64,000 bases of DNA from Moorena sp. SIOASIH (GTDB lineage: Bacteria > Cyanobacteriota > Cyanobacteriia > Cyanobacteriales > Coleofasciculaceae), in assembly GCF_010671925.1 (NCBI RefSeq), contig NZ_JAAHIH010000001.1, forward strand, positions 613,053 to 677,052. Direction: 5' to 3'. How positions within the stretch are numbered: position 1 is the stretch's first letter; each line of letters opens with the position of its first letter. Below are positions 1 through 50,545 of the stretch, in pieces. Under the pieces are notes generated by a model. That model saw nothing but the letters and a program-made list of their open reading frames with translations. It searched no databases and was not told where the DNA came from. The position numbers and the translations under genes were made by a program.

Positions 1-486
1 AGAAGGCTCTGCTTGGAATTTCTTGGCTACGCCTTAGGGGTAGCGAGAAGACACAGGAGCATTCTGTAAGACTTAGAAAAAACTGGGTAACAAATCCTAT
101 AAATCCCTAGAAATAGTTATAAATAGTAGGGTGGGTTATTAAAGTACTCTACTAGTAGAGTTACTGGGGAAGTCTTGTCCTAGTTGCTGATCTATTATTT
201 CTGTCAAGAACCTGGGAGTAGTGCAACCCCACGCATAGAATCCGGGGGCTTGTAACCTCAATACTTGACCAGCTTAAGTCCTAAGCGGACTCCGTTGTCA
301 GTAAGTGTTCAAGTTCCTACCTTGGGATGCGTCGCTAGTTCCAAGCTCTAGAACCAAATTGTTAAACATCTGTATCAGGTTAAGGGAGTGCAATTTGGAT
401 AGTACCGACTGACAACATTAGCGTTCGCGGCAGCGTGTGCGAAGCACTCAGCGAACTTAACCCTAGAAATAGGAGTAAACGTAATT
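1..486 (+). ncRNA. Candidate omega-RNA (guide + scaffold) region immediately upstream of iscB
   Basis: 486 nt with no ORF directly 5' of an IscB gene. By established IS200/IS605 OMEGA biology the omega-RNA is encoded here and overlaps the iscB start. An inverted repeat GTTCGC..GCGAAC lies at 424-455. The structure was not folded; the left boundary may lie outside the window. Confidence 0.3.
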
Positions 487-4225: not shown

Positions 4226-4427
4226 GTAAGCATTCAGCCGTCAGCCGTTGGCCGTAGGCCAAGCTACTTGAGGTGCCGTCAGCTTATTTTTCAAGTACCG
4301 TGCGCTATGGGCATAAACTGTTGCCGTAGCGTGACCACAGGCCTTTAGCCGTTCCCGTAGCGTGCGCGTAGCGCATTAGCCTTTAGCTGATACGCGACAC
4401 GCTGATAGCTGATAGCTGAATGCTTAG
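4226..4427. repeat. MITE-like element bounded by inverted GTAAGCATTCAGC ... GCTGAATGCTTAG termini
   Basis: Terminal inverted repeats at 4226-4238 and 4415-4427. Internal modules CAGCCGT heptamers, GCTACTTGAGGTGC, GCGTAGCGTGCGCGTAGCGC and GCTGATA heptamers recur in similar elements across the window. Confidence 0.5.
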
Positions 4428-5085: not shown

Positions 5086-7679
5086 GTGTCTGGAAAATCA
5101 AATAGGCTGAAGTAGCACGGGCGACCGAATATTGGCGCACCTGGGAGCGAGAGGAGTAAGACCCTCTCCCCCCCTAGGATTCAGGAGGGTTCCCACTCGA
5201 AGGTGCAAAAGACGATGGACATCTCGGAAAGAAAAATCTAGGATTATCCCGAAGTCTTTTGTATCAGAGCTAGAGAGAAAGTAGGTTATAACCGAACCAC
5301 CGAATAGGAAATAACCGAACAGGGAAAGAACGACAAGGTTGAAGGACATGAATCGTTGTTTAAAGGCACCGTCATCAGTGATAACCCCGCTAAACTCGGT
5401 GATGGGGTTATAGGCTCCAGGATTACATTGCGTGTTAGATGTAATCGAATCCCATGAAGGACCCGGTGTAGAGACGGCAACCTTTAGTTCGCAACTCACA
5501 GGCGCGTAAACGGGTAAGCCGAGATTGAGTCCATATTGTCTGGTCGATAAATATGGTAGCCAAACCGCAAGGAAAGGTATAACTCTCAGTCCGGTAAAAG
5601 TCTGAACCAAGCAAAGGCCGACACCTGAAAAGGAACGGGAATACATAACCGGTCGGATAGAGGGAAGTCCCTCGCTCGAAAGAGCGCTGAATTTCAGAGC
5701 TGATTCCGAGCCAAGAGGAAACGTACTTAATTAACTTAAAGTGTACATGGAAAAGATAGAACCTATATCGCAAGATACGGGTATCGTAACTGAACACACC
5801 ACTGAATGGCACTCCATAAATTGGAAGAAAGCCTACAGACAGGTGAGGAAATTAAGACAACGTATTTTCAAAGCGACACGTGAAGGAAACTGGAAAAAGG
5901 TCAATAAACTCCAAAGATTGATGCTTAGGAGTTACAGCAATGTCCAGATATCCGTCAAAACAGCCACCCAACAAAATAAAGGAAAGAGAACGGCAGGGGT
6001 TGATCAAGAAAAATGCCTGAATCCTCAAGAAAGAGGACAGATGGTAGACAGATTAATCAACCTCAAATCATGGGCAGCTAAACCCACCAAACGCATCTAC
6101 ATACCCAAGGCCAACGGCAAACAAAGACCCTTAGGGATACCAAGTATCACCGACAGATGTCTACAAGCCATAGTCAAAAACACACTAGAACCTGCCTGGG
6201 AAGCCCAGTTTGAAGGAACCTCATACGGGTTCAGACCAGGCAGAAGTGCCCATGATGCCCGACAACGCATCTTCTCAAATATTAAAGGGGAAAAGAATAG
6301 GAAATGGTGGATAGTGGAAGCGGACATAAAAGGATGCTTCGACAATATAGCCCACCAACCACTTCTGGAATCCATCGGAAACTTTCCAGCAAGAAAGCAA
6401 ATTAAAGACTGGTTAAAGGCAGGGTACGTAGATAAAAATACGTTCCACCCGACAGAATCAGGCACCCCACAGGGGGGAATAATAAGCCCACTTCTGGCCA
6501 ACATTGCTTTACACGGACTGGAAACAGAGTTAGGAATAACCTATAAAAGGGTTAAAAGAAACAACAGGGCAAGTTACTGGGAAAATAAATCCAATAGAAC
6601 AATAGCTCGCTTTGCGGATGACTTTGTAATCATAACAGAGAGCAAAGAAGATGCTGTGAACGCTAAGGAAATCACGAAGAAGTGGTTATCCAAAAGAGGG
6701 TTAGAACTATCGGAAGAAAAAAACCAAGATAACTCACCTAACAGAAGGATTCGATTTCCTAGGATGGAACTTCAGGAAATATAAAACAACCGGAAAAAAG
6801 TCAGGGTACATTACACTAATTAAACCCTCCAAGAAAAGCCTGAAGAACATCAAGAAGGAGATAAAAATAGCCATGGCTCAACTAAAGGGTGCATCAGAAG
6901 ATGTGGTGATAGCCAAGTTACAACCTCTCATAAGAGGATGGACCAACTATCACAACGGGACAGTGGCTAAAGAAACCTTCAACAACCTAAATGAATACGT
7001 AAGATGGAAATTAGTAAGATGGTGCCTAAGAAGATACCCAAAAAATAAAAGTTGGGAATGGATTAAAGCCAAACACTTCGGCAAATTCTGCCCTGGAAGG
7101 GAAGATAACCATGTGTTCGGAAGGAAAGACAATTATCTGGACAAAGCACAATGGACAAACATCACCAGGCATGTGCTAGTAACCCACAACTACTCTAAGG
7201 ACGACCCTGAACTCCAAGAATATTGGAAGAAAAGGCAAGAAAAAAATGGGAAAAAAGCAGCAGAAGGAGCACTATCCAAAGGTAGGAATAAGATAGCCTT
7301 AAGGCAAAAATACACCTGCCCATACTGCGGACAACCACTTGGAGAATATAATAATGTTCATCTACACCACATTATCCCTAGGGAAAATGGGGGAAAAGAT
7401 GAAGCAGGGAACCTAGTATATGTCCACGAAGATTGTCACAGGACCATCCACGCCTTGGGAGCCAGCAATCCTGAGATACAGGAAAAACTGTATCGAGCGA
7501 TAAAAACCCGTCCAAGGAACCGGAAGAAAAGCCAAAAGGTACAAACCCGGTTATCCAAAGACTAAAAGCTGGATGAAAAGATAACGTGTATAAAGGAATT
7601 GGTTGCGCCGTGTGCTTGGTAACTTGCTCGCACGGTGCTTAGGGGGCGAAGAGGGAGCAATCCCTCCGACCTACCCAAT
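5086..7679 (+). mobile_element. Group II intron, about 2.6 kb, with its intron-encoded protein in domain IV
   Basis: An RT-X-HNH ORF is flanked by non-coding RNA-like sequence. A domain V-like hairpin GCGCCGTGTGC-TTGGTAACTTGC-TCGCACGGTGC lies at 7604-7638. A domain VI-like segment ends in ..CCAAT at 7679. The proposed 5' end GTGTC at 5086 and the 3' end are inferred from reconstructing the interrupted dhaL reading frame: joining 5085|7680 restores ..GHQDPVLETIA-stop on the minus strand. Boundaries are within a few nt. Confidence 0.6.
5741..7565 (+). pseudogene. Group II intron-encoded reverse transcriptase/maturase/HNH endonuclease, split by a +1 frameshift in an A7 run (6717-6723)
   Basis: ORF 5741-6784 carries RT domains 0-7 (RPLGIPSITDRCLQA, FRPGRSAHDA, FADDFVII). 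ORF 6873-7565 carries the X/maturase motif RGWTNYH and an HNH domain (CPYCGQ..HHIIPRENGG..HEDCH). Deleting one A from GAAGAAAAAAACC restores the canonical ..LSEEKTKITHLTEGFDFLGWNFRKY.. junction. This is either a genuine pseudogene or a homopolymer sequencing error. Confidence 0.8.
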
Positions 7680-15263: not shown

Positions 15264-18110
15264 TCAAACCGACCTGTCGAGTTGGTTGATAATATACTCT
15301 TTAACCCCAAAAGCCGAATCTAGCTGCAACGCCTCACCAGCAAGCATCTCGGCCTGGTTGATACTCAACTGTGTAATAACTGAAATCACAGTAGCGATCG
15401 CAGGTGGATTCACACTCAACTCATCCACCCCCAATCCTAATAAAATCGGTATCCCTACTGGATTCGATGCCAACTGACCACAGACACTAACTGGAATCCC
15501 TGCTTGATGAGCAACAGTTACCGTTTGCTGAATCATCCGTAGCACAGCTGGTTCAAGGGCATCAGCCAGCTTCGCCACCTTGGGATTAGTACGGTCAGCG
15601 GCCATCACATATTGACTCAAATCATTGGTACCAATGCTGAAAAAGTCCACTTCAGCGGCTAACTGATCAGCCATGGTTACTGCTGCCGGGACTTCTACCA
15701 TAATCCCCACTGGCATCTGTTCATTAAAACGATGCCCTTCTTGGCGCAACTCGGCTTTAGCCTCTGCTAGGATTTCCTTAGCAGCCCGTACCTCTTGTAC
15801 TGAAGAAACCATAGGAAACATCACTTTAATGTTGTGTCCATAACTCCCTCGTAGAATCGCCCGCAGTTGGATTTTGAGCATCTCTGGACAATCCAAACTC
15901 TGACGAATTCCCCGCCATCCTAGGAAAGGGTTAGGCTCTGGGGTGTGCGGAGCAGAGGAAGCATCAGAAGACGCTAGATTCAGGAAGGGAATGGGCTTGT
16001 CACCGCCAATATCCAAAGTACGAATCGTTAGGGGATGGGTACCCATAATTTGCGCAATGGCTTGATAGGTTGCCAACTGCTCTTCCTCGCTCGGAATAGT
16101 TAAGCGTTCCAGATAAAGAAACTCAGTCCTAAGTAAACCGACCCCTTGAGCACCACAATCGAGAGCCAATTTAGCATCAGCCTCTCCCAAAACATTTGCC
16201 ATCAAGGGAATTTTGTGTCCATCATGAGTAATTACCTCCCTAGGTAATTCATCCTTACTGTTGCTCTGTAGCTGTAATTCTTGCTTTTGTTCCTCAGAAG
16301 GCTCTACCCAAATTTCACCGGTTGTCCCATCCAGTGCCAACTCCGTACCAGCTGGCAACGACAACAGATCCTGACCAACACCAACCACCATCGGTATACC
16401 GAGCATATTGGCGATTAGGGCACTATGGGCTGTAGCACTGCCCCTAGCGCAACAGATACCTAGGACTTGGATCGGATTTAGTTGTGCGACCTCAGAGGGA
16501 GTTAAATCAGCAGCAACCAGAATACCAGGCTCAGTCACATCTATTTGACTTACTAAGTTTAGTTGGTTTTGCCCCCCTGCCCCCCAATTTTTCGGTGCGA
16601 CCCGTGGCGAATTTAATTCGCCAACGGAAAGCGCACCGGGAGGGGTAATCATGTCAAAGTCCCCCGCCCCCCTAACCCCCCAATTCTGGGGGGAATTAGC
16701 GGATGCTTTGCTTTTTGACATTGGGGGATTTAGGGGGCTCTTGCGTAAGTCCTGATCTAGACAGCTTTCTTTCCTATTCGTGAGTAATCGCAACACTCGC
16801 CAGCCGACATCGATCACATCATTTCCGCGAGCTTGCATGTAGGAGTCTTCCAGAGTTTGGTAATTTGCTACGGTTTCATCGATCACAGTTTTCCAAGCCG
16901 CCCCTGCCCATAGATGCTGGTCAACTATAATCTGATAAGCTCTATTAACTAGGGCTGGATCCTCTAAATAGAGCAAGTGAGCCTGAAAAATATCTGCCTG
17001 ATCGTTAGTAACAGTATTGATCAGGTGTTCAAGTTGCTGTTGTGCTGTTTTAATAGCAAGTTGTAGGGTTTCCCACTCCCCTTGAGGATTATCTGTTTGC
17101 TCTTCAATAATTTCTGGACGTTTGGGTTGGTAGACAATAACCGCTCCGATAGCAATACCAGCAGCAGCGGGAATTCCAACTAACCTATCAAGTGTGACAG
17201 ATGACGAGTGAAGGGATTGGTTACTGGGAGGGTTAGAGTCTTGGTTGATGTCTTCTTTTGGTTTATCTAGTTTTTCCCCAAAATTGTTATGGACTAGCTG
17301 CTGCAACGCGATCAAGGCTAATTCCGCATCTTCTCCTACTGCATAGATGACTATTTTATCTCCCTGTTGGATACCTAAAAGCATCACATTATTAATGCTT
17401 TTTCCATTAACTATATTGCTAGTTTTGGTTAGGTTTTGTAGGGTTATTTCACAGTTAAACCGATTAGCTGTAGTAACAAATTGGGCAGCAGGACGAGCAT
17501 GAATTCCCTGTTGATTCTGGACAGTAAGATGGATTTCTTTGGTTGTAGTTCCGTAGGGTGCGTTAGGGACGGGCTCACCCTGATTTTCCCCTTCGTAGCC
17601 AGGGTTGGAACAGCCAGTCCCACCCACGGGCAAGATGCCCGTTCCACCCACGGGCAAGATGCCCGTTCCACCCACGGGCAAGATGCCCGTTCCACCCACC
17701 GGGTCTGATAACTGAGAGGCTTTAGCGGTTAAGGCTGATCTAGCTTCAGCAATCACTTGGTCGATATCACCACCAGCCGCAGCTTGGACAACCGCTGCGA
17801 TCGCACCTTCCACTAATGGCGCTTCGCACAATCTTACCTTGGGTTTCTGCTCTTCATCCAGAAACTCCAGTGCCATTTCCGCACTGAGCACGGCACTGCC
17901 TAAATCCATTAATACCACTACCCCAGCATCGGAGTAAACCGACTCAATGGCAGCTTGGACTTGCAGCACATCGGTACCAAAGGGATTTTCCGGGTCATCG
18001 ATACCAGCTGCGATCGCAATCGGTACGGATGTCTGAACCATCTGTTGGGCTAATTCCTTGACCCCAGCCGCTAGCTTAGCACTGTGGGAGATAATCACAA
18101 TTCCAATCAT
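15264..18110 (-). CDS. dhaM: Multidomain phosphotransferase DhaM/PtsP-like: EIIA(Man)-like domain, then a hairpin-repeat linker, then HPr, then Enzyme I
   Basis: MIGIVIISHSAKLAAG is the EIIA-Man/DhaM N-domain. GIHARPAAQFV is the HPr His site. GSATAHSALIANMLGIPMVVG, GGLLRTEFLY, IRTLDIGGDK and FSIGTNDLSQY are Enzyme I/PEP-utilising motifs. The ORF track starts at 18197 inside a (GGCAAGA)n array; the conserved start MIGIV is at 18110. Confidence 0.85.
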   Translation of the reverse strand: MIGIVIISHSAKLAAGVKELAQQMVQTSVPIAIAAGIDDPENPFGTDVLQVQAAIESVYSDAGVVVLMDLGSAVLSAEMALEFLDEEQKPKVRLCEAPLVEGAIAAVVQAAAGGDIDQVIAEARSALTAKASQLSDPVGGTGILPVGGTGILPVGGTGILPVGGTGCSNPGYEGENQGEPVPNAPYGTTTKEIHLTVQNQQGIHARPAAQFVTTANRFNCEITLQNLTKTSNIVNGKSINNVMLLGIQQGDKIVIYAVGEDAELALIALQQLVHNNFGEKLDKPKEDINQDSNPPSNQSLHSSSVTLDRLVGIPAAAGIAIGAVIVYQPKRPEIIEEQTDNPQGEWETLQLAIKTAQQQLEHLINTVTNDQADIFQAHLLYLEDPALVNRAYQIIVDQHLWAGAAWKTVIDETVANYQTLEDSYMQARGNDVIDVGWRVLRLLTNRKESCLDQDLRKSPLNPPMSKSKASANSPQNWGVRGAGDFDMITPPGALSVGELNSPRVAPKNWGAGGQNQLNLVSQIDVTEPGILVAADLTPSEVAQLNPIQVLGICCARGSATAHSALIANMLGIPMVVGVGQDLLSLPAGTELALDGTTGEIWVEPSEEQKQELQLQSNSKDELPREVITHDGHKIPLMANVLGEADAKLALDCGAQGVGLLRTEFLYLERLTIPSEEEQLATYQAIAQIMGTHPLTIRTLDIGGDKPIPFLNLASSDASSAPHTPEPNPFLGWRGIRQSLDCPEMLKIQLRAILRGSYGHNIKVMFPMVSSVQEVRAAKEILAEAKAELRQEGHRFNEQMPVGIMVEVPAAVTMADQLAAEVDFFSIGTNDLSQYVMAADRTNPKVAKLADALEPAVLRMIQQTVTVAHQAGIPVSVCGQLASNPVGIPILLGLGVDELSVNPPAIATVISVITQLSINQAEMLAGEALQLDSAFGVKEYIINQLDRSV
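17618..17701. repeat. 24-nt tandem repeat (CCCACGGGCAAGATGCCCGTTCCA, about 3.5 copies) inside dhaM, encoding (GGTGILPV)n
   Basis: Direct reading. The unit contains the hairpin AACGGGCAAGATGCCCGTT, which also occurs at 35770-35830, 19390-19420 and within the 61-bp satellite at 22895-23290. Confidence 0.85.
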
Positions 18111-18149
18111 AAGGTATATAAACACCTTTGTATCTGGGTTGTGAACATA

Positions 18150-18205
18150 CTCCCAAAGGCAAGAGGCAAGAGGCAAGAGGCAAGAGGCAAGAGGCAAGAG
18201 GCAAA
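18150..18205. repeat. Heptamer repeat (GGCAAGA)6 in the dhaM 5' leader
   Basis: Direct reading; duplicated at 19555-19585. Confidence 0.85.
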
Positions 18206-24476: not shown

Positions 24477-24731
24477 TTAAGGGTAATTATCCCGACATGA
24501 TATAACCTCTAGGTTTAAAGACAGACAAAAGTAGTGCTTCCCATAGTTCATGGGGTTTGTCCTTAATTTTGATGAATAAATTGGACTGGTAAGCTATCAG
24601 CTTAAGCGCTACGCGCACGCTACGCGAACAGCCATCAGCTATCAGCTATCAGTTTATGGGCAGGCCACACCGAACAGCTTTTTAATAAAACAGGTAAGCA
24701 TTGGAATAATGCTGAGTTAAATCTGCTGACA

Positions 24732-24909: not shown

Positions 24910-25506
24910 ATGGCATTAGTACCTATCCGTAAGGCGGTCGAACTTACAGGACTATCTCCAAACACACTACGGAAGTATGCAGACAATGGCACCATTCGAT
25001 GCGAGAGAACCCCAGGAGGGACTAGACTCTTTGACTCAACAGATCTTCGCAGTTTTGGAAAAGCTCGAAGGGCTAGTAGACCCAACAATGTCACCATCTG
25101 CTACTGCCGAGTCAGTAGCAGTAAACAACGAGACGATCTCGCTCGCCAAGTCGCCTATCTGCATTCCCTCTTCCCCGAAGCAGAAATCATCTTTGACATC
25201 GGTTCCGGCCTCAACTACAAAAGAAAGGGGCTTAGAACCATACTGGAGCGAGTTGTCTGCGGAGATAAGCTCACGATTGTTGTTGCCTGTAAAGACCGAC
25301 TTACCCGATTCGGGTTTGAACTCATTGAGTACTTGGTCGGTCTCAACGGTGGAAAAATCCTGGTTCTCGACCAGTCTAAAAACTGCCCAGAATCAGAGCT
25401 TACCGCAGATCTTCTCTCCATCATTCACGTCTTCTCCTGTCGGGTTCACGGACTCAGGAAATACGGTCAGAAAATCAAAGAAGATTCGTCTGTTCCTAAA
25501 CCCTAG
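24910..25506 (+). CDS. tnpA: IS607-type TnpA: MerR-like HTH + serine recombinase (resolvase) catalytic domain
   Basis: HTH LVPIRKAVELTGLSPNTLRKYADNG. Resolvase motifs ICYCRVSSSKQRDDLARQ (catalytic Ser) and VVACKDRLTRFG. Confidence 0.8.
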   Translation: MALVPIRKAVELTGLSPNTLRKYADNGTIRCERTPGGTRLFDSTDLRSFGKARRASRPNNVTICYCRVSSSKQRDDLARQVAYLHSLFPEAEIIFDIGSGLNYKRKGLRTILERVVCGDKLTIVVACKDRLTRFGFELIEYLVGLNGGKILVLDQSKNCPESELTADLLSIIHVFSCRVHGLRKYGQKIKEDSSVPKP

Positions 25507-26581
25507 TCAGCGATCGCTAGTCCGTAAGTGGTTCGGAGTGTCCCGTTATGTTTTCAATAAAACAGTTAAAATTCTCCAGAGTGGCGAAGTAAAAGCCAAC
25601 TGGAAAGCCATTAAAACTGGTATTCTAAATGACCTACCCGACTGGTGCAAGGAAGTGCCTTATCAGATCAAATCGATAGGGATTAAGGATGCTTGCACTG
25701 CTGTCAGGGAGGCTAAGAAGAAGTACAAGAAAACATTAGATATAAACCGGGTAAGGTTTAGATCTCGAAAGAATCCTATTCAGTCTTGCTATATCCCAAA
25801 GTCAGCCATTTCAGATGTAGGGATGTATCACACTAAATTAGGCGAGCTAAAGTATTCAGAGCCTCTTCCAATAGAAGTGTGCGACAGCCGACTAACCAGC
25901 AATAATGGGGACTTCTATTTAGTAGTTCCCCATAAAGTAACAAAAACGAATGCCGAAAACCAAGGTAGAGTAGTTGCTTTAGACCCTGGAGTCAGAACTT
26001 TCATTACTTTTTTCAGTGAGACATCTGTCGGGAAGATTGGGCATGGGGACTTTTCAAGAATCCAGCGACTCTGCCAACACCTAGACAACCTACTGTCTAA
26101 AATCAGTAAAGCTAAAGGTGGGCAAAAGCGTCGGATGAAGAAAGCCGCCAGGCGAATGGTTATTAAGATTCAAAATCTAGTCAACGAATTGCACCATAAG
26201 ACGGCTAGATTCTTGGTTGATAACTTCGATGTAATTCTTATCCCTACTTTTGAGACATCTCAGATGTCAAGGAAAGGGAACAGGAAAATTAGATCTAAAA
26301 CCGTTCGTAATATGCTCACCTTCGCTCATTACCGTTTCAAAGAATTTCTAAAACATAAAGCCCAGGAAATGGGGAAACTGGTAATAGATGTCTGTGAGGC
26401 TTACACCAGTAAGACTGTTAGTTGGACAGGTGAATTGCTCAACATTGGTGGAAGCAAAATAATCACATCGAAAGTTGATGGTCGATCTATGGATCGAGAC
26501 ATTAACGGCGCTCGGGGGATATTCCTCAGAGCCTTGGGAGATACCCCCTGGTTGCGAGAGCAACTTGCATTAGTGAGCTAA
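25472..26581 (+). CDS. tnpB: TnpB (OrfB) RuvC-like RNA-guided nuclease-family protein of the IS607 element
   Basis: KIRLFLNPSQRSLVRKWFGVSRYVFN is a typical TnpB N-terminus. ALDPGVRTF is RuvC-I. The C-terminal DINGARGI follows a zinc-finger-like region. The start codon is uncertain: there is no in-frame ATG near the conserved N-terminus, so it is probably a GTG/TTG start overlapping the tnpA end. Confidence 0.75.
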   Translation, partial: KSKKIRLFLNPSQRSLVRKWFGVSRYVFNKTVKILQSGEVKANWKAIKTGILNDLPDWCKEVPYQIKSIGIKDACTAVREAKKKYKKTLDINRVRFRSRKNPIQSCYIPKSAISDVGMYHTKLGELKYSEPLPIEVCDSRLTSNNGDFYLVVPHKVTKTNAENQGRVVALDPGVRTFITFFSETSVGKIGHGDFSRIQRLCQHLDNLLSKISKAKGGQKRRMKKAARRMVIKIQNLVNELHHKTARFLVDNFDVILIPTFETSQMSRKGNRKIRSKTVRNMLTFAHYRFKEFLKHKAQEMGKLVIDVCEAYTSKTVSWTGELLNIGGSKIITSKVDGRSMDRDINGARGIFLRALGDTPWLREQLALVS

Positions 26582-29500: not shown

Positions 29501-29601
29501 CCCCCAAGTAAAATTGAGGTAACTATATCATGCCAGAAAAACCATTAGTTTATCATCCCATCGATTACCATGAAGCGTTCGCGTAGCGTGTGCGTAGCAC
29601 A

Positions 29602-40816: not shown

Positions 40817-41270
40817 CTGGTTGAAGGTTAGCTGGTTGAAGGTTGAAGGTTAGCTGGTTGAAGGTTGAAGGTTACCCAGTTGTTCGCGTAGCGTGGCCTT
40901 TTGGCCAAGGTTGTTTGGTTGTTCGCGTAGCGTGGCCTTTTGGCCAAGGTTGAAGGTTACACAGTTGGAGGCTGAAGGTTGAAGCTTGAAGGTTACCGAG
41001 TTGTTCGCGTAGCGTGGCCTTTTGGCCAAGGTTGAGTTAACAACAATCGCGATCGCAAATCCCCCAACACCTCCCCAACGCCACTAGTACTATTAACCCA
41101 ACACCTAACCCCTAAAACCATTACCGTAACATTCAACGGTCAACCCTTTAACAACCTTCAACCTTCAACCAGCTAACCTTCAACCAGCTAACCTTCAACC
41201 TGTTAACCTTAAACCCTTTAACAACCTTCAACCTGTTAACCTTCAACCGATTAACAACTTTCAACCTTCA
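40800..41270. repeat. Composite foldback element: ~60-bp inverted termini built of GGTTGAA/GGTTAGC heptamers, enclosing three copies of the hairpin repeat GTTCGCGTAGCGTGGCCTTTTGGCCAAGG
   Basis: 40800-40870 is the reverse complement of about 41155-41225. Hairpin copies at about 40871-40900, 40916-40950 and 41003-41035. Lies between convergent genes. Confidence 0.6.
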
Positions 41271-41274
41271 ACTT

Positions 41275-42087
41275 TCAACTATCCTTAACTGCTACTAGCT
41301 CTAATTGATAGCGATAGAGAGCCACAGGTTGTTCCAAAGCTTTAAAGTAATCGGGGTCTTGTGGTGAGAGGTAAACCGCTGTAACTTGGTCAGCCTTAAT
41401 AATTGGACTAGGTGATTTATAGAACTGATATGCTGTTGTGGTTTCTACTTCGTTGAAAAAAGGTCGGCGAGTACCGCGAAAGACTTGGTTGACAACTTCT
41501 GTGGCAATAAACTGATCCGGAGCTGGTATTTCAGAAGCACGACCAGTAATCACTGAAACTAGTTGGCTCCCGGTGCGCAGAAGGGTAATCTGACGATTAG
41601 GGGTATTGGGGTCTACTTTGACAGCTCTAATTATGCGTTCGCCTAAGTAAGCCTTAGCAATATTCAACCCATTGAACCCTCGGTCAGCAACCACCTCTGA
41701 GGTAGGTTTTAATACTGATAGATTTTGTCTAGAACGTCGAGTTCTAAAGGGAATAAACCAATCCCCAAGCCCTGAGCTTGATTTCCCAACTTGTTGAAAC
41801 CTCACCAGAAAACTAATTGGCTCCTTGAGATGACTGCGATTACCTTCAAATCCTGGGGTGACTATTTCTGGTGCTAGAGGTGCTATCTGCTCGATCAGGG
41901 TGCTGGTAACTTTCCAAGTCCCCTTCATCCAAGTGGGATATAGCAAATCACCGGTCGCCGCTGTCACTGGTGGTTTGCTTTTCCAATCGGGAAACTGACC
42001 TAAACGCTCAGCTAACTCTCCTGCCTGAGCCTCACCACTACCAAAGAGTAAGGTCAACACCAGACATAATCCCAAAATTCTTTTCAA
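41275..42087 (-). CDS. Secreted conserved hypothetical protein (signal peptide)
   Basis: MKRILGLCLVLTLLFGSGEAQA signal peptide; 270 aa; coding-like composition; no recognised domain. Confidence 0.45.
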   Translation of the reverse strand: MKRILGLCLVLTLLFGSGEAQAGELAERLGQFPDWKSKPPVTAATGDLLYPTWMKGTWKVTSTLIEQIAPLAPEIVTPGFEGNRSHLKEPISFLVRFQQVGKSSSGLGDWFIPFRTRRSRQNLSVLKPTSEVVADRGFNGLNIAKAYLGERIIRAVKVDPNTPNRQITLLRTGSQLVSVITGRASEIPAPDQFIATEVVNQVFRGTRRPFFNEVETTTAYQFYKSPSPIIKADQVTAVYLSPQDPDYFKALEQPVALYRYQLELVAVKDS

Positions 42088-42414
42088 ACCAAAATTCCTC
42101 TCAGCTTAGACTGGTCAGCTATCTTGCGGTAAGGCAGGTCGCCCCATCCAAGCAAGAATCAAAGCAACAGGGGAGTGCTGACCTTTACCATTTTAACTTT
42201 GGGTGTCTGCACTATAGATGTTTCCACTGTCGGTGTTTTCACTAAGATATCCTTTTAGATATTCCTTAGCCTAATCCAGGGCTAACTGTCAAGTATAGTT
42301 CACTCTCGCGAGAACTGTCCAAAATCTGTAGAGTTTTTGATAATCGATGATTTTACTGACTTTTACTTCAATTCCTGGTAAGTGAACTACCACGACCTAC
42401 TTCGTTGTTAGCAT

Positions 42415-43950
42415 TCGCGCAGCGGAGGCCGTAGGCCAAAAGCGTGGCCTACGGCCAGGTCGTGGCTTCCAGCTTCACGGAAGAATGCCTCAACTTGGAC
42501 GGACGTCCACGTCTTGGTCTTACTTCTTCGACCCTGGCGTTGACCTCCCCCGTCCCAGAGGAGGATAGCATTCTGATCCCTTCTGCTCTAATATTCTTTG
42601 CCGCATTACCATCTCTATCATGATGAGTGCCACAGCTTGGACAAACCCAAGACCTTACATGTAGCGGTAACTCTTTGATTCGGTAATGACAATTAGAGCA
42701 GGTTTTGGAACTGGGAAACCATCGATCTATCTCAACTAGTACTTTTCCTTCTTTTTCGCATTTATAAGAAAGAAAATTAACAAAATTTCCCCAACTTAGA
42801 TCAGATATTGCTTTAGCTAATTTGTGGTTACGAACCATGCCCTTGACGTTTAGGTTTTCGACTACCACTACCTGGTTATTGTCAACTATTTTTCTAGATA
42901 GCTTATGCAAGTAGTCTTGGCGGACATTTCCAATCCGTTCGTATACCTTAGCTACAATCTTTTTGGCCTTTTTGCGTCCATTGCTCCCTTTCTTTTTTCG
43001 GGCAGCAATACGCTGCTTTTTCGCTAGTTTATTTTCGTACTTTGCTAAATGCTTGGGATTCCCAAATTTAGAAGTTTTTTCACCATCGTAGGTGATCGCA
43101 AAATCTTTAATACCTAAATCAATACCAATCACTTTACCTGTGGCCTTTGGCCACGCTGCGCGAACAATAGATGGCTTTACGTCGTTCGAGTCGTATTGCA
43201 TCAGTACAGAGGCATAGTATTTACCGGAAGGAGTCTTGCTGACTGTGACAGTTTTGATTTCTCCATCTAATGGTCGGTGGATTATTGCTTTAACAACTCC
43301 CAACTTTCCGGGAAATTTGAGACAGTCACCTACCTGTTTTACGTACTGTGGATATTGGATTGATTGACGGTGATGATATGACTTGAATTTAGGATATTTA
43401 GCTCTACCTTGGCCTATGGCCACGCTACGCGAACAAAAAAGTTTTGATATCCACGACTAAGATTGAGACTGACCGATTGCAAAATCTGAGAGTAACAATC
43501 CTTTAGCCATACGGTTTTCTCGTCTTTTTTGAGTTTTGGCAACATAGCATTAAGTGCAGAACGAGACAATCCTTTCCCGGTTTCCTTGTAGGTTTCTATG
43601 CACTGATTTAGAGCATAATTCCACCACCAACGAGCACAGCCAAAGTGCTGAGCAAGTATATGAACTTGCTCTTGTGTGGGGTAAATTCGGATCTTTACGG
43701 CTTGATGTCTCATTTTTCCTGCATTTGCTATCGACCTATATATCATTATATGTCATTTGTGATAAATCGTCAATTCATCAGCAAAGGTTTTGAGAGGGCT
43801 ATCCATCCTAGAGACGAAACCTGATTGTTAGTGGAGCCTTTATGGTTAGTCGGCTATGCATAAAAGGGTTAAAACTTTTTGATTAAGGCTCCACTATCCT
43901 TACGGTAACTTCAACACCTGGACGTTCGCGCAGCGTGGCCAAAGGCCAGG
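42415..43950 (-). mobile_element. IS200/IS605-family TnpB-only (IS1341-like) element with hairpin repeats at both ends
   Basis: The tnpB reading frames are flanked by GTTCGCGCAGCG-GTGGCC-loop-GGCCAC-type hairpins at 42420-42470 and 43924-43948. Confidence 0.45.
42449..43746 (-). pseudogene. tnpB: tnpB split into two ORFs by insertion of a 25-nt REP-like hairpin repeat
   Basis: The N-terminal ORF 43414-43746 (KIRIYPTQEQ..) ends ..FVRVAWP at a TAG created by the repeat (43410-43437, TGGCCTATGGCCACGCTACGCGAACAA). The C-terminal ORF 42449-43423 carries RuvC motifs (IGIDLGIKDF, VVVENLNVKGM) and a zinc finger (CSNC..CPSCG). A second copy of the repeat at 43141-43167 is in frame and encodes VRAAWPKA. 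Confidence 0.75.
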
Positions 43951-44357
43951 TGGGAGAATTTCGCCCCCTCAAACTCCCCCTATTTCGTTAAAAATTAGTC
44001 TAATAGGCTTACCATAGAGAGCTTAAAACTATGTGGCTATATCAAAAAGATTTAGTGAAGTTAATATAAATTAACGGGAACAAAGTTAATCAGTAAGGTT
44101 CATAATAAAAGTGTATATATAATACTAGTGTATATACTTAGATCTTAATAAAGGCTTCAAGATTTCAGTTAAGGTCACCAGCCTGATGTTTACCAAACCC
44201 TGACCATAGTACTATTCCCCTCAGTATTGTGATTCAGTGTAATTCAGTGTGATTCAGTGTGATTCACTCCTAAGCAGCTGATACCCCAGGGTGCATCTGA
44301 CCTCAGCTTAAAAACAGACGTATTAGGAAATTGCTAATCTCATCCTGTAGTTGACTA

Positions 44358-47300
44358 ATGCATTTTGGAATTCAGGATAGCCGATTAAAAACGATATTAC
44401 CCATGAGCCAAATCAAATTAGCTGTGAGTCAAATCAGCCAGTCCCTGGCAGCCGTATCTTTGTTGGTAGCCCATATTGGTGTCATGCCAACTCAAGCACA
44501 GCCCATTCAAGCCGATGGTAGCACTCCGACCCAAGTCACCCCCAATGACAATCAATTTGATATTGATGGTGGAACCCCCTCTGGAAATAATCTCTTTCAC
44601 AGCTTTCAAGAGTTTGGTCTAGACCAAGACCAAATTGCTAACTTCCTATCTCAACCGGGTATACAAAACATTCTGAGTCGGGTCACCGGTGGTAATGCTT
44701 CTGTGATCAACGGTCTAATACAAGTTACAGGGGGCAGCCCTAACCTGTTTTTAATGAACCCAGCGGGGATAATTTTTGGTGCTAATGCCCAGCTGAATGT
44801 CCCTGCTTCTTTAACTGCAACTACGGCCACCAGCATTGGCTTTGGTGATGACAATTGGTTTAATGCCTTTGGTGACAATGACTACTCTAGCTTAGTCGGT
44901 ACACCCAGTGCCTTTGCGTTTGATACATCCCAGACACCTGGGACATCCCAGACACCGGGACTAATTTTTAATGAGGGTATAGAAATCCTAGAAGGAAATA
45001 ACCTGACTTTAATCGGTGGTACTGTCATTAACACCAATCAACTGGAGCTTCCAGACGGAACAATTACTATAGCTACGGTGCCTGGGGGAAGTTTGGTAAA
45101 AATTAGCCAGCAAGGAAGTTTGCTGAATTTGGAAGTTGAACCCCTAACCTCAAATCCCTCCACAGCAGAACAATCTTTTACACCGCTCTCTTTAGCGGAG
45201 CTATTAACCGGGGATGATGTCAGTCATGCCACAGAATTCACGGATAATGGTGATAACACGGTGACCTTGACTAGTTCTGGCATCACTATATCGCCTGGTG
45301 ATGTAACTGTTTCTGCCAACAATAACCTGACTCTGAGAGGAAGCCAGCTATCTAGCACGGGGGAATTAACCCTATTGGCGAAAGAGACCGTACTGATCAG
45401 GGACACACCAGAGAATTCCTTCCAAGCAGTAGCAGGAGGAAACCTCAAGATTCAGGGGGATGGGGGCATTGATATCCAAGCACTGAAGAATCCCAACACC
45501 CGCTTCGAGAGTGGTGGCGACCTGACATTGGTCAGCGATGGCACGATCTCTACAGATGCTCACTTTGCCAGTGGCGGTAATTTCTCAATTGAAAATTTAG
45601 CTGGTGAACCAGGTAACTTTGTTAGCCTCCAAGACCCAATTATCACTGCTGACGGAGATGTTACGTTTGGGAATTACACAGGGTCTTCTCTTAAAGTAGA
45701 ATCCACAGGAAATATTGAAGCTGGGAATATCAAAATCACCGCACCAGATACTGGGCTAGCCGATTTAGACTCAGAGTTAACAGATACTCAGCCAGAAAAT
45801 TTTCTAGAGTTAGTTTCCACTTCAAAGCGGAACGAATTAGATAGTGAAACTTTAAACAAATTAGAGAATCAAACCTTAAAAACTACTCGTGCCGTGATTT
45901 TAAGGGCGGGTTTGAATAAAGATGAATTGAGCAATCAAGTTACGGTAAATTCTGGAGATGCTTCATCCAATCAAGTTACGGACAATGCTGGAGATGCTTC
46001 ATCCAAAGGGAGTATCACCATTGGTAATATCGATACCAGTAATCCTCCTAATGGTGGTGGTAATAATGCTCCTGGAATTCAAGGTGATGCTGGTCCTGTG
46101 ATATTATCTGCTAAAGGTGACATTATTTTTCGCAATAGCAATAGTGATGGGACAAATAATAATATTAGAAATAATAATTTAACCCAAATAAGAACCACAG
46201 AAACAAATGGGAATAATTCTGGTAATGTATTTTTGGAAACCAAAGAGGGCAGTATTAGGATAGAGGGAGTAGGACTCGATATCAACACTGAGGTTTCAAG
46301 CGATGGTAATGCTGGGAAAGTAACGTTTCAGGTTCCAAATTTAGATAATATCGACTCTGGTAAGTTGCAACTCAGGACAAGAGCTCGGGGTAGTGCTGAT
46401 GCTGGTGATGTAGAGTTTGTTAGTCAGCAAGAGAGCAGCCCAGAGCAGAAACAACAAATAAGAGATCAAATCGAGGAAGATGTGCGGGCTTTCGGTGGAG
46501 GGGGTATAGGTGATTTTATTTTTAGCCGTTTTCCCACAGATACTAATACAGAAGAGGAAACAAACCAACAAAACGACACAAACCAACAAGAAGAAACAGA
46601 CCTTATAGAAGAAACCGACCTTATAGACACTGGTGAAACCGACCTTATAGACACTGGTGAAACCGACCTTATAGACACTGGTGAAACCGACCTTATAGAC
46701 ACTGGTGAAACCGACCTTATAGACACTGGTGAAACCGACTCTGACTCTAACCTTAATGTTAGCTTGGGCGAAGGTAATGAAATTGTTAATGAAACATCCC
46801 CTGAAACAAGTGACTCCAACGGTGGAAACAGTGGTAAGCAGACTCCCGCTTCCACCTCTGACAAGACTGCGATCACTGACACCCAAGAGTCCTCTAGCTC
46901 AGACCCTAGTAGCTCAGACCCTGGTAGTTCAGACGCTAGTAGTTCAGACCCTGGTAGTTCAGAACCTGGAACCCCTACTGCTTCATCTCAATCAAATTCC
47001 CCAACTGAGGAGGTCTCACCTGAAACTGACCCAGTTTATTTAATTGAAGAAGCCTTCACCAAAGAATATCAGTCACACTTTCAGCGATCGTTCAAGACGA
47101 AAATCAACACACAGAATGATGTCCGCAATCGGACTCGGGAGCTTGAGAGGGAGACAGGGCTAAAGACTGCGGTGATTTACGTCAGTTTTGTCGAAAATTC
47201 CAGTACCTTACCAGGCACTCGATGTCAAAGTCCCTCAATCCCTGTTTCCAAAATCGACCGACGGTTTGGTTACCGACTCTCTCAGGTGCCTCAAGCACCA

Positions 47301-48353
47301 GAGCGTTGCTTACCAAAACCAAACGACCAGCTGGAACTTTTGGTGATCACCGCTGAAGGTAATCCAATTCTGCGGCGAATCAATGGTGCAAGTCGTGATC
47401 AAGTCCTAGCTGTGACCAATACATTTCAGCGATCGCTTAGCAATCCCCACAGCTTGGATGCCAAAGCCCACCTAAATCCAGGTGAGCAACTTTATCAATG
47501 GATCATAGCGCCCTTACAGAAGGAATTAAATGACCGCAAGATTCAGAGCCTAATATTTGCTATGGATGAGGGTTTGCGCTCCCTACCCCTAGCAGCTATC
47601 TACGATGGGCAACAATATCTGGTTGAGAAGTATGGTGTTAATTTGGTGCCTAGTCTGAGCTTAACCTATTCTCGTCACACAGATGTGAGACCCTTCCGGG
47701 TTCTGGCAATGGGAGCATCGAAATTTCGTTATCAAAATCCTTTGCCTGGGGTAGAAGTGGAGTTAAGCACCATCACTGAAAAACTGTGGAAAGGTCGCTC
47801 TTTTCTCAACGAAGCCTTTACTCTCGAAAATTTAATGGCTCAACGACAACAGCGGCAATATGGCATCATTCACCTAGCCACCCATGCAGAGTTCAACTCG
47901 GGAACTCCTAACGATTCCTACATTCAGATGTGGAACCGCAAACTAAGGCTGTATGAAATGAAAAATCTACTTTATGAGCCATCGGTAGAGTTGTTGGTAC
48001 TCAGCGCTTGCCGAACCGCTTTGGGCAATCGAGAAGCGGAGTTGGGTTTTGCTGGGTCAGCTTTTCAGGCAGGAGTTGACTCGACTTTGGCAACCCTTTG
48101 GTATGTCAGTGATCAAGGTGCTCTGGGGCTAACTACTGAGTTTTACCGTCAGTTGAGAAAGACATCGAGTAAAAGTGAAGCTTTGCGACAGGCACAGTTA
48201 GCGATGATTCAAGGCAATGTGCGTATCGAGAATAATCAGTTATATGGCTCGGGCAAGAACATCTCGTTACCGCCAGAATTGTCAGGAGCAGGAAAACAAA
48301 GCTTTTCTCATCCCTACTATTGGGCTGCTTTTACCCTAGTTGGGGATCCCTAG
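44358..48353 (+). CDS. Giant protein: filamentous-haemagglutinin N-terminal (TPS-type) domain + internal repeats + C-terminal CHAT (caspase-like) domain
   Basis: N-terminal FHA-N motifs: NFLSQPGIQNILSRVTGGNASVINGLIQV, NLFLMNPAGIIFGANAQLNV. Internal (ETDLIDTG)5 and SSDPGSSD repeats. C-terminal CHAT motifs: IIHLATHAEF (His) and LVLSACRTALG (Cys). Confidence 0.8.
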   Translation: MHFGIQDSRLKTILPMSQIKLAVSQISQSLAAVSLLVAHIGVMPTQAQPIQADGSTPTQVTPNDNQFDIDGGTPSGNNLFHSFQEFGLDQDQIANFLSQPGIQNILSRVTGGNASVINGLIQVTGGSPNLFLMNPAGIIFGANAQLNVPASLTATTATSIGFGDDNWFNAFGDNDYSSLVGTPSAFAFDTSQTPGTSQTPGLIFNEGIEILEGNNLTLIGGTVINTNQLELPDGTITIATVPGGSLVKISQQGSLLNLEVEPLTSNPSTAEQSFTPLSLAELLTGDDVSHATEFTDNGDNTVTLTSSGITISPGDVTVSANNNLTLRGSQLSSTGELTLLAKETVLIRDTPENSFQAVAGGNLKIQGDGGIDIQALKNPNTRFESGGDLTLVSDGTISTDAHFASGGNFSIENLAGEPGNFVSLQDPIITADGDVTFGNYTGSSLKVESTGNIEAGNIKITAPDTGLADLDSELTDTQPENFLELVSTSKRNELDSETLNKLENQTLKTTRAVILRAGLNKDELSNQVTVNSGDASSNQVTDNAGDASSKGSITIGNIDTSNPPNGGGNNAPGIQGDAGPVILSAKGDIIFRNSNSDGTNNNIRNNNLTQIRTTETNGNNSGNVFLETKEGSIRIEGVGLDINTEVSSDGNAGKVTFQVPNLDNIDSGKLQLRTRARGSADAGDVEFVSQQESSPEQKQQIRDQIEEDVRAFGGGGIGDFIFSRFPTDTNTEEETNQQNDTNQQEETDLIEETDLIDTGETDLIDTGETDLIDTGETDLIDTGETDLIDTGETDSDSNLNVSLGEGNEIVNETSPETSDSNGGNSGKQTPASTSDKTAITDTQESSSSDPSSSDPGSSDASSSDPGSSEPGTPTASSQSNSPTEEVSPETDPVYLIEEAFTKEYQSHFQRSFKTKINTQNDVRNRTRELERETGLKTAVIYVSFVENSSTLPGTRCQSPSIPVSKIDRRFGYRLSQVPQAPERCLPKPNDQLELLVITAEGNPILRRINGASRDQVLAVTNTFQRSLSNPHSLDAKAHLNPGEQLYQWIIAPLQKELNDRKIQSLIFAMDEGLRSLPLAAIYDGQQYLVEKYGVNLVPSLSLTYSRHTDVRPFRVLAMGASKFRYQNPLPGVEVELSTITEKLWKGRSFLNEAFTLENLMAQRQQRQYGIIHLATHAEFNSGTPNDSYIQMWNRKLRLYEMKNLLYEPSVELLVLSACRTALGNREAELGFAGSAFQAGVDSTLATLWYVSDQGALGLTTEFYRQLRKTSSKSEALRQAQLAMIQGNVRIENNQLYGSGKNISLPPELSGAGKQSFSHPYYWAAFTLVGDP
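46595..46740. repeat. 24-nt in-frame tandem repeat (GAAACCGACCTTATAGACACTGGT)x5 inside the FHA/CHAT gene
   Basis: Direct reading; encodes ETDLIDTG units. Confidence 0.85.
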
Positions 48354-50407: not shown

Positions 50408-50545
50408 TAACCTTCAGCGTAACCTTGGCCAAAAGGCCACGCGATCGCGTTCAACCTTCTAACCTTGGCCAAAAGGCCACGCAATCGCGTTCAACCTTCT
50501 AACCTTGGCCAAAAGGCCACGCAATCGCGTTCAACCTTCCTTCTA
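50408..50545. repeat. Three tandem copies of the hairpin repeat AACCTTGGCCAAAAGGCCACGC(G/A)ATCGCGTTCAACCTTCT
   Basis: Direct reading. The core GGCCAAAAGGCC palindrome plus a GCGATCGC (HIP1) variant of the GTTCGCG..GTGGCC family. Lies downstream of ffh. Confidence 0.8.

Follow-up and report, generated by a model that had tools for sequence, protein, structure and literature searches.

A 23-nt two-hairpin repeat that interrupts a Moorena tnpB gene resembles the small dispersed repeats of cyanobacteria

We analysed a 64,000-nt stretch of Moorena sp. SIOASIH (contig NZ_JAAHIH010000001.1, forward-strand positions 613,053 to 677,052; hereafter the window, numbered from its first base), in which a tnpB gene is split by a short hairpin repeat. 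The gene is carried by a tnpB-only insertion sequence (IS) of the IS200/IS605 family that occupies 42382..43986 on the minus strand (1605 bp). The flanks of its paralogues diverge directly outside both ends. The left end begins right after TTTAAC (43992..43987) and the right end reads ...GGTAGTTCAC, with 42382 as its last base; in every IS copy of the paralogue comparison, TTTAAC precedes the element and GTAGTTCAC terminates it. Hairpins at the left and right ends are conserved among paralogues with compensatory changes, inverted repeats are absent, and insertion takes place beside a short motif. We found no tnpA in the IS, which has merely ~270 nt between its left end and the tnpB start. The IS is a tnpB-only element that relies on TnpA in trans.

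The full tnpB spans 43713..42449 (minus strand) and is read as two open reading frames (ORFs) in different frames. The N-terminal fragment (43414..43713, minus strand) reads MRHQAVK...QNFF and then an insert-derived VRVAWP and a TAG stop. Its ORF is listed as 43746..43414 and matches Pfam HTH_OrfB_IS605 at 1e-20; homologues begin at MRHQ or MKHK. The C-terminal part (42449..43410, minus strand) runs from GRAKYPKFKS... to the stop; its frame is offset by +2 from that of the N-terminal fragment. Its ORF (43423..42449) matches Pfam OrfB_IS605 and a Cas12f1-like TNB domain. The reconstructed protein matches ISDra2 TnpB structures (E=5e-69) and carries the HTH, RuvC (OrfB_IS605) and zinc-ribbon/TNB domains that are a trait of the IS200/IS605 family (Pfam). 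Its nearest relatives are nearly all from Moorena, a marine filamentous cyanobacterium of the Coleofasciculaceae. The window tnpB is a fresh pseudogene, and its orthologue in Moorena sp. SS36440bin_2 (locus L001, alignable to the window across 4.6 kb that include sequence to either side of the element) is intact.

Two copies of a repeat with the consensus TTCGCG-N-AGCG-TGGCC-NNN-GGCC lie in the tnpB coding region, and four lie within the IS. The sequence GTTCGCGYAGCGTGGCC occurs exactly at 40882, 40921, 41003 and 43924 (plus strand) and at 43149-43165 and 43418-43434 (minus strand), six places in all. With up to three mismatches it has 10 matches in 64 kb, against 0.08 expected from shuffles. 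A first-pass annotation of this DNA had placed the repeat copies correctly and had translated both intragenic ones correctly, as VRAAWPKA and as VRVAWP followed by a stop. It had given the unit as 25 nt; the inserted unit is 23 nt at both positions.

At site 1 the copy TTCGCGTAGCGTGGCCATAGGCC (23 nt; 43411..43433, minus strand) sits within the GAA codon of QNFF-E-GRAKYP. The split had been put down to the stop codon that this copy creates. The copy does supply the TAG, and it also shifts the tnpB frame by +2, which leaves the two ORFs in different frames. Its boundaries are unambiguous: a 23-nt block stands between TTTTTTG and AAGGTAGAGC without target duplication, and the site is empty in the orthologue L001 and in L002-L005.

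At site 2 the copy TTCGCGCAGCGTGGCCAAAGGCC (43142..43164, minus strand) reads in frame as VRAAWPKA together with one extra downstream base. It lies in the linker that leads directly into the RuvC-I GIDLG motif. Every paralogue has a 24-nt gap at this place; L001 has the copy. The insert aligns to a gap before GVDLG in the AI-designed TnpB-like chain 9yyg_A, and the ISDra2 TnpB structures 8bf8, 8exa and 8h1j match the same query span. Without its 23 nt, site 2 keeps one base over the paralogues (ATTG-AC-A-GGT vs GAC-GGN); the in-frame state therefore looks secondary. The loop of this copy (window 43146-43148) is AAA in the window and TAC in L001, though the surrounding gene is nearly identical. 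The window loop equals that of an inverted copy 760 nt away at the left end of the IS, which suggests conversion between the two inverted copies.

That left-end copy (43925..43947, plus strand) is identical to the site 2 copy in opposite orientation; the segments 43141-43165 and 43924-43948 are complementary at 25 of 25 positions. It breaks into the left-end hairpin, which in L081 is clean: the L081 left end reads CCCACCTTCTTACAAGGTGGGG, contains the native hairpin CCCACCTT-CTTAC-AAGGTGGGG, and has no repeat. A composite (nested or doubled) repeat at 42414..42456 (plus strand) occupies the loop of the right-end terminal hairpin (CCACGACC...GGTCGTGG; stem arms 42390-42397 and 42458-42465) and falls in the presumed omega RNA. 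This loop is short in the paralogues L002, L036, L081 and L082 (CTACGTAG and similar), holds a single repeat in L003, and in L001 holds a longer nested version with an additional 22 nt that include an inverted first module. In the predicted RNA fold of the right end, the outer stem is retained and the insert makes its own 12-bp hairpin. These two copies had been described as flanking the element. Both lie inside it and are missing from paralogue ends, and they are therefore further insertions and not native recognition hairpins. Relative to tnpB transcription, the copies at sites 1 and 2 are in sense orientation, and those at the left end, at the right end and at a third site (site 3, filled in L081 and L082) are antisense.

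Comparison with L001 and with paralogues gives both filled and empty states of these sites. An exact-protein look-up of four window proteins returned no orthologous locus; L001 came from a genome scan. The L001 tnpB is 99.6% identical to that of the window, has an empty site 1 (TTTTTTG^AAGGTAG, the caret marking the insertion point) and forms an intact 413-codon ORF. Protein alignment of 46 sequences shows QNFF-E-GRAKYP and ...KPS-TD-GKVIGIDLG in most homologues, and VRAAWPKA and VRVAWP occur as native peptides in 0 of 45 close homologues; both tnpB copies are therefore insertions, added to the ancestral gene as had been supposed. DNA alignments against the paralogues show clean gaps of 23 nt at site 1 and 24 nt at site 2.

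The site 1 position has been hit recurrently. Four paralogues, whose tnpB genes are ~84-88% identical to the window copy, also carry an insert there: one of 23 nt in L032 and L036, where the ORF is broken, and one of 24 nt in L081 and L082, where it is intact. L002, 97.6% identical to L082, has site 1 empty, which implies at least two independent events, or events unexplained by descent. The extra base that restores the frame differs between the two intact genes: L081 has the loop AATA, and L082 has GCG-TC-AGC. In L002 and L082 the repeat also occurs at other left-end positions. Of the 30 closest intact TnpB representatives in Moorena, 21 contain mini-inserts, one or two each and 8-17 residues long. 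These fall at five recurrent loop positions, and many of them start with VR (= GTTCGC). TnpB evidently tolerates mini-inserts in its linkers, and selection appears to rescue some of the tnpB copies that they hit.

The IS occupies the same site in the window and in L001 and differs between them at 10 of ~1600 positions, four of which are in repeats. The flanks (41256-42381 and 43987-45179) differ by ~3-12% per 200-nt bin. With so much less divergence than its flanks, the IS is either younger than the strain split or has been homogenised or re-copied, by homing or conversion.

We labelled the repeat family TTCGCGNAGCG and its Moorena form TTCGCGNAGCG-TGGCC. The unit is predicted to fold, as single-stranded DNA, into two neighbouring hairpins. 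The first, CGC-GNA-GCG, holds the heptamer GCGNAGC, with N being T in 21, C in seven, A in three and G in two of 33 copies. In the second, a T...A closing pair is constant and encloses an inner stem that varies between lineages yet remains complementary. We found seven types of inner stem (GGCC, GCGC, GTGC, GACC, GTCC, CTCC and CGCG), all following one and the same first module, and the loop is often C-GTA-G or C-GAA-G. The copies are one family that joins a module conserved in sequence to a module conserved in structure.

The first module recalls a known DNA structure. Hirao, Yoshizawa and colleagues are said to have reported in the 1990s that d(GCGNAGC), with its GNA triloop, is an extraordinarily stable DNA mini-hairpin, described reportedly in phage origins and synthetic oligonucleotides. 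The repeat contains exactly GCGNAGC and shows all four bases at N. What was described there as a structural motif appears here as part of a repeat that is probably mobile.

The insertion target at site 1 is TTG^AAGGT. Three 24-nt copies with the loop TTTT (40883-40906, 40922-40945 and 41004-41027, plus strand) lie at GTTG^AAGGTTG in GGTTGAA heptamer arrays and thus share this context. The left-end hairpin has the related context G^AAGGTGG, the right-end loop has TTG^AGGTCG, and L032 and L081 have GTG^AAGCTGG. The unit is preceded by G in 29 of 33 family copies, and in the Moorena copies, which have the GGCC stem, its 23 nt are directly followed by A. A clean IS has four GAAGG sites, and insertion is found only at the one preceded by TTG; with one of the four sites used, we rejected GAAGG alone as the target. 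The three array copies belong to a 448-nt block (40808-41255) that is wholly absent from the L001 locus and behaves as one indel. This block consists of inverted GGTTGAA/AGCTGGT heptamer arrays (50-nt perfect inverted arms), the three repeat copies and a HIP1 site.

Further family members lie elsewhere in the window. Two tandem triplets had been noticed before. The one at 40883-41027 is the array just described, whereas the one at 50420..50539 (minus strand) is a variant: three tandem 40-nt units, each with the HIP1-like first module AACGCGAT[C/T]GCG and the hairpin TGGCC-TTTT-GGCC. Here CGCGAT(C/T)GCG replaces CGCGTAGCG, and the unit has been tandemly amplified. The relative noted near iscB is indeed present, as a 25-nt insert TTCGCGGCAGCG-TGTGC-GAA-GCAC-T at 424..448 (plus strand). 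It lies in the 3' part of the IscB HEARO/omega RNA (203-461; Rfam, 117 bits), where it is an insertion relative to the consensus; iscB itself (487-1761, with RRXRR and HNH domains) follows. A copy with the same first module and the stem TGCGC-GTA-GCGC (24606..24628, minus strand) sits in AGCTGAT heptamer repeats. Similar copies are found at 4352-4374 and 29578-29600 (both plus strand), the latter with a TGTGC/GCAC stem directly upstream of a start codon. We considered whether the small ORF at 29530 is a gene broken by this repeat and rejected this, as the likely start codon, at 29602, is just downstream of the copy at 29578.

The family is also found outside Moorena. The CTCC-stem form (TCTCC) is widespread on Nostocales plasmids, including pCC7120alpha of Nostoc PCC 7120, and relatives occur in Mastigocoleus, Scytonema, Brasilonema, a Chroococcales metagenome-assembled genome and Coleofasciculaceae. 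A plasmid search with the Moorena variant returned only weak chance matches in enterobacteria. A metagenome scan for TTCGCGNAGCGTGGCC-N3-4-GGCC returned 81 stretches, all on contigs of 51-74% G+C and with no Moorena-like context, and these were discarded as chance matches.

In our view the 23-nt repeat (24 nt where the loop has four bases) is likely to be a miniature, non-autonomous mobile element, of the cyanobacterial small-dispersed-repeat (SDR) class and similar to repetitive extragenic palindromes (REPs). Such an element would be copied to new positions that have G to the left and A(A)GG to the right, with TTG^AAGGT as the best target, and would leave the target unduplicated. The GGTTGAA heptamer arrays would act as collectors of copies, since the motif is present in every array unit. 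In the IS the motif would be on offer at one place in the coding region and also in the hairpins at the ends. Being selfish DNA, the IS would tolerate the hits, so that four copies could accumulate in one element. At site 2, whose copy is common to L001, one extra base would have restored the frame and the copy would persist as an 8-residue loop insert; the site 1 copy would still be in its raw 23-nt state, with the gene made a pseudogene.

How the repeat moves is a separate matter, on which we offer a proposal that we hold with somewhat less than even confidence. The written strand may move as single-stranded DNA, handled in trans by an enzyme that recognises structure, most likely an HUH/Y1-type transposase. 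On single-stranded DNA, such an enzyme would recognise the second hairpin by its shape, along with the conserved module. We favour this type because there is no duplication, insertion is adjacent to a motif, hairpins are present and the first module is a DNA-type mini-hairpin. A tnpB-only IS needs a Y1 TnpA in trans, and an enzyme of this kind should therefore exist in the genome.

Several points weigh against this explanation as a whole. We found no Y1 or REP-associated tyrosine transposase (RAYT) protein among ~50 window ORFs (Pfam, covering 52 of the 58 ORFs with 110 aa or more). The RAYT gene of Anabaena azotica has long GTAG REPs on its flanks that are unrelated to the repeat, and no family member lies within 5.5 kb of it. 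The window may have gained the site 1 copy, or L001 may have lost it precisely; either implies mobility. Instead of a de novo insertion, gene conversion over a short tract could have brought the site 1 copy in from an unseen paralogue of near-identical sequence. The genes L081 and L082, which are 86% identical, have the same 27-nt replacement at site 3, which suggests that conversion does spread inserts. The Moorena sample is also small, at one window and eight loci.

The first-pass annotation had offered two readings, one of which was an independent REP/RAYT-type repeat that targets TnpB DNA. The repeat is independent of the IS and dispersed, yet its target is the short TTG^AAGGT and not tnpB as such. 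In its strict form, a REP mobilised by a RAYT, this reading is in our judgement unlikely. The hairpin has a GTAG-like tag 5' of its stem, target duplication is absent, RAYT-like proteins are widespread in cyanobacteria, and subclasses abundant in cyanobacteria have in-frame REPs in genes (PMC6006769). However, the tag is G-N-A-G with a free N and not GT[AG]G, most copies stand alone or in direct arrays and do not form inverted doublets, and three are intragenic and not extragenic. The ~50 window ORFs covered by Pfam include no Y1/RAYT gene, and the cyanobacterial RAYT genes that we inspected have other repeats beside them. Using a query obtained with E. coli RayT, a pseudogene on a Gloeocapsa plasmid that we repaired, we identified 2131 RAYT-like matches in cyanobacteria (E<=1e-10), and none of the best 120 is named Moorena. 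The Gloeocapsa RAYT gene is flanked by unrelated REPs, as is that of Anabaena azotica, a genome that has a TCTCC-type relative in its tnpB. The Gloeocapsa locus (L166; Gloeocapsa sp. PCC 7428 plasmid pGLO7428.01, 62551-63824) is an unannotated frameshifted RAYT pseudogene with canonical GTAG REPs (GTAGGATGCGTTACG...) around it.

A second explanation needs no dedicated enzyme: the site 1 copy arrived by short-tract gene conversion or microhomology-templated repair from a filled paralogue or from a heptamer array. The TTG and AAGGT flanks of site 1 do equal those of the array copies, the site 3 replacement is common to well-diverged paralogues, and the flanks of the IS are ~10 times more diverged between strains than the IS itself, in keeping with homogenisation. 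Yet the sequence on both sides of the insert is that of L001 and unlike every filled paralogue seen, so any conversion tract would be shorter than ~30 nt, and the window array copies have the loop TTTT, not ATA. Moreover, the boundaries are constant to the nucleotide where flanks share only G on the left and A on the right (site 2, site 3, the 29578 copy, the HEARO copy and PCC 7120). Such boundaries in dissimilar flanks argue against conversion as a general mechanism, and we regard this explanation as improbable.

Spread through an RNA intermediate and reverse transcription, which Elhai and colleagues reportedly proposed for SDRs in 2008, seems to us no better placed, with only a small chance of being right. 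Copies do lie in transcribed sequence, namely tnpB mRNA, omega RNAs and a 5' leader; a group II intron reverse transcriptase is encoded in the window; and target duplication is absent. Against this, copies occur in both orientations relative to tnpB transcription, the invariant GCGNAGC is by established knowledge stable as a DNA and not as an RNA mini-hairpin, and stem variants that pair only through G-U occur in 0 of 33 copies.

The copies in tnpB coding sequence, in the right end and presumed omega RNA of TnpB and in the IscB HEARO RNA are also the basis for a bolder and quite doubtful idea. The repeat might be a hyperparasite of OMEGA elements, moved by the Y1 TnpA machinery of tnpB and iscB ISs, preferring their coding regions and guide-RNA scaffolds and tuning or disabling RNA-guided nucleases, with selection repeatedly repairing the frame. 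If true, it would be the smallest known element with a defined target and a defined relationship to a host element.

The other reading offered before, that the repeats are the IS's own subterminal TnpA recognition hairpins duplicated inward, is very improbable. Copies are present in both subterminal regions, and the left-end copy is the inverted site 2 copy. However, the native hairpins of clean paralogues (CCCACCTT...AAGGTGGGG and CCCCAACC...GGTTGGGG) are without the repeat, as the ends of L081, L002 and L036 illustrate; L002 and L082 have it at other left-end positions; and the same repeat occurs in heptamer arrays, a 5' leader and the IscB omega RNA. The idea that VRAAWPKA and VRVAWP are native coding sequence split by an ordinary point mutation has next to no chance of being correct: some intact Moorena TnpB proteins do read VRVAWPIGQ or VRVSVAYGQ after QNFF, but these carry the same inserted repeat in their DNA, lengthened to 24 nt, while VRAAWPKA is confined to the window and L001, no intact homologue has either peptide natively, QNFF-E-GRAKYP is found in most homologues, all non-Moorena ones and L001, and the empty orthologous site refutes it.

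Our placement of the proposed mobile repeat among the SDRs relies on the description of that class and not on the SDR1-8 consensus sequences. Elhai and colleagues reportedly described SDR1-8 of Nostocaceae in 2008 as units of ~21-27 nt found in heptamer arrays and small transposons, with self-nesting, compensatory structure and recent mobility, and Nostoc PCC 7120 is said to have been among the genomes used. The repeat is alike in length (23 nt for tnpB-associated copies, 24 nt in arrays) and in having many dispersed copies, and it likewise sits within heptamer arrays (GGTTGAA, AGCTGAT) and a small transposon. It is also alike in its filled/empty evidence of mobility, its nested self-insertion (42414-42456 and the 22-nt piece in L001) and its compensatory stems, and Nostoc PCC 7120 is host to a relative with the same first module (TCTCC stem). 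It differs in its host, Moorena (Coleofasciculaceae), in its GGCC-based second stem and in its target, TTG^AAGGT vs HIP1 for SDR5. SDR5 is described as a 21-nt repeat that targets HIP1 in passages of papers citing Elhai et al. (2008). A passage of one review (PMC5861425) gives SDR-like repeats as reported only in Nostocaceae. The occurrence in Moorena and in other genera seen here widens the SDR-like range beyond that family, and kinship is not excluded thereby.

REPs and REPINs, with their RAYTs, have been treated in several studies (Bertels and Rainey, 2011, PMC3116915; Di Nocera et al., 2013, PMC3733652), and in-frame REP insertions are known from cyanobacterial tnpA_REP genes (Quentin et al., 2018, PMC6006769). 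The repeat shares with them a short hairpin, an unpaired 5' tag, high copy number, the lack of target duplication, and coding insertions that keep the frame and are located in loops. Its stem is much shorter (4-5 bp), and in place of GT[AG]G it has a GNAG tag inside a mini-hairpin; GTAG is present in 21 of 33 copies, and the tag lies 2 nt from the stem as part of its own mini-hairpin. REPs are extragenic, whereas two copies here are in tnpB coding sequence and others in omega RNA regions. REPINs are inverted doublets, whereas the copies here are singletons or direct arrays, of which only the composite at 42414-42456 folds like a doublet. Given that very small mobile repeats of cyanobacteria (Elhai et al., 2008, as cited in later papers) and in-frame REP insertions in cyanobacterial genes (PMC6006769) are already on record, the first-pass annotation overstated the case in calling both of its readings unusual.

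The repeat also invites comparison with MITEs (transposable elements of miniature size that have inverted repeats) and palindrome-associated elements. The palindrome-associated elements of IS200/IS605 and bacterial MITEs, such as Nezha of cyanobacteria, are ~70-300 bp long and have both ends of a parent IS. The repeat resembles them in being non-autonomous, hairpin-bearing and, as proposed, mobilised in trans, and it resembles IS200/IS605-type elements in inserting next to a short specific motif without duplication. At only 23 nt it is unlike them in length, and it is unlike the ends of its host IS (TTTAAC before the first base, GTAGTTCAC at the last).

This locus offers an unusually clean handle on how elements of ~20 nt, described in 2008, move, with an exact filled/empty strain pair, a 23-nt unit and a recurrent TTG^AAGGT target, and the GNA mini-hairpin and covarying stem point to a single-stranded DNA substrate that can be synthesised and tested. 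The coexistence of broken and frame-restored alleles is consistent with selection on some tnpB copies to remain functional. The inserts mark the places at which extra sequence is tolerated in TnpB and in its guide RNA, and such a map may help engineering; inserts of this kind can explain cyanobacterial tnpB genes that are annotated as split or oddly long.

Other genes and repeats of the window merit brief mention. Another TnpB-like ORF (24977-26581) is longer, at 534 aa, and matches HTH, OrfB and TNB weakly; the GCGC-stem repeat copy lies ~350 nt upstream of it, within AGCTGAT and GCTGACC heptamer arrays. A group II intron occupies 5741-7679, with a reverse transcriptase ORF (5741-6784) and a maturase/HNH ORF (6873-7565) in different frames and a match to its 3' domain at 7603-7679. 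The intron-encoded protein is probably frameshifted. We considered the split between these ORFs (6784/6873) as another gene broken by the repeat and rejected it, as no repeat lies at the break.

A second family of mini-palindromes has the core GGCGAATTTAATTCGCC. It forms a 50-nt perfect palindrome in L001 at window coordinate 44373, missing from the window, and a 47-nt insert at the 3' end of the L003 tnpB; a window copy (16595-16637) lies inside a 977-aa ORF (15264..18197). The gene for a protein with TPS and CHAT domains (44358-48353) contains tandem repeats of 24-nt units (46587-46763) and 15-nt units (46880-46969), and differs from L001 by an 18-nt repeat-unit indel at 44939-44956. In cyanobacterial tnpB genes of other genera (L010, L014, L018, L023, L024, L029, L034 and L037), we found inserts of 15, 21, 24, 27, 48 and 57 nt; these belong to different repeat families (e.g. 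TGAGCGAAGTCGAAG and GCTTGCCCTGAGCGCAGCCGAAGG), and their lengths are mostly multiples of three.

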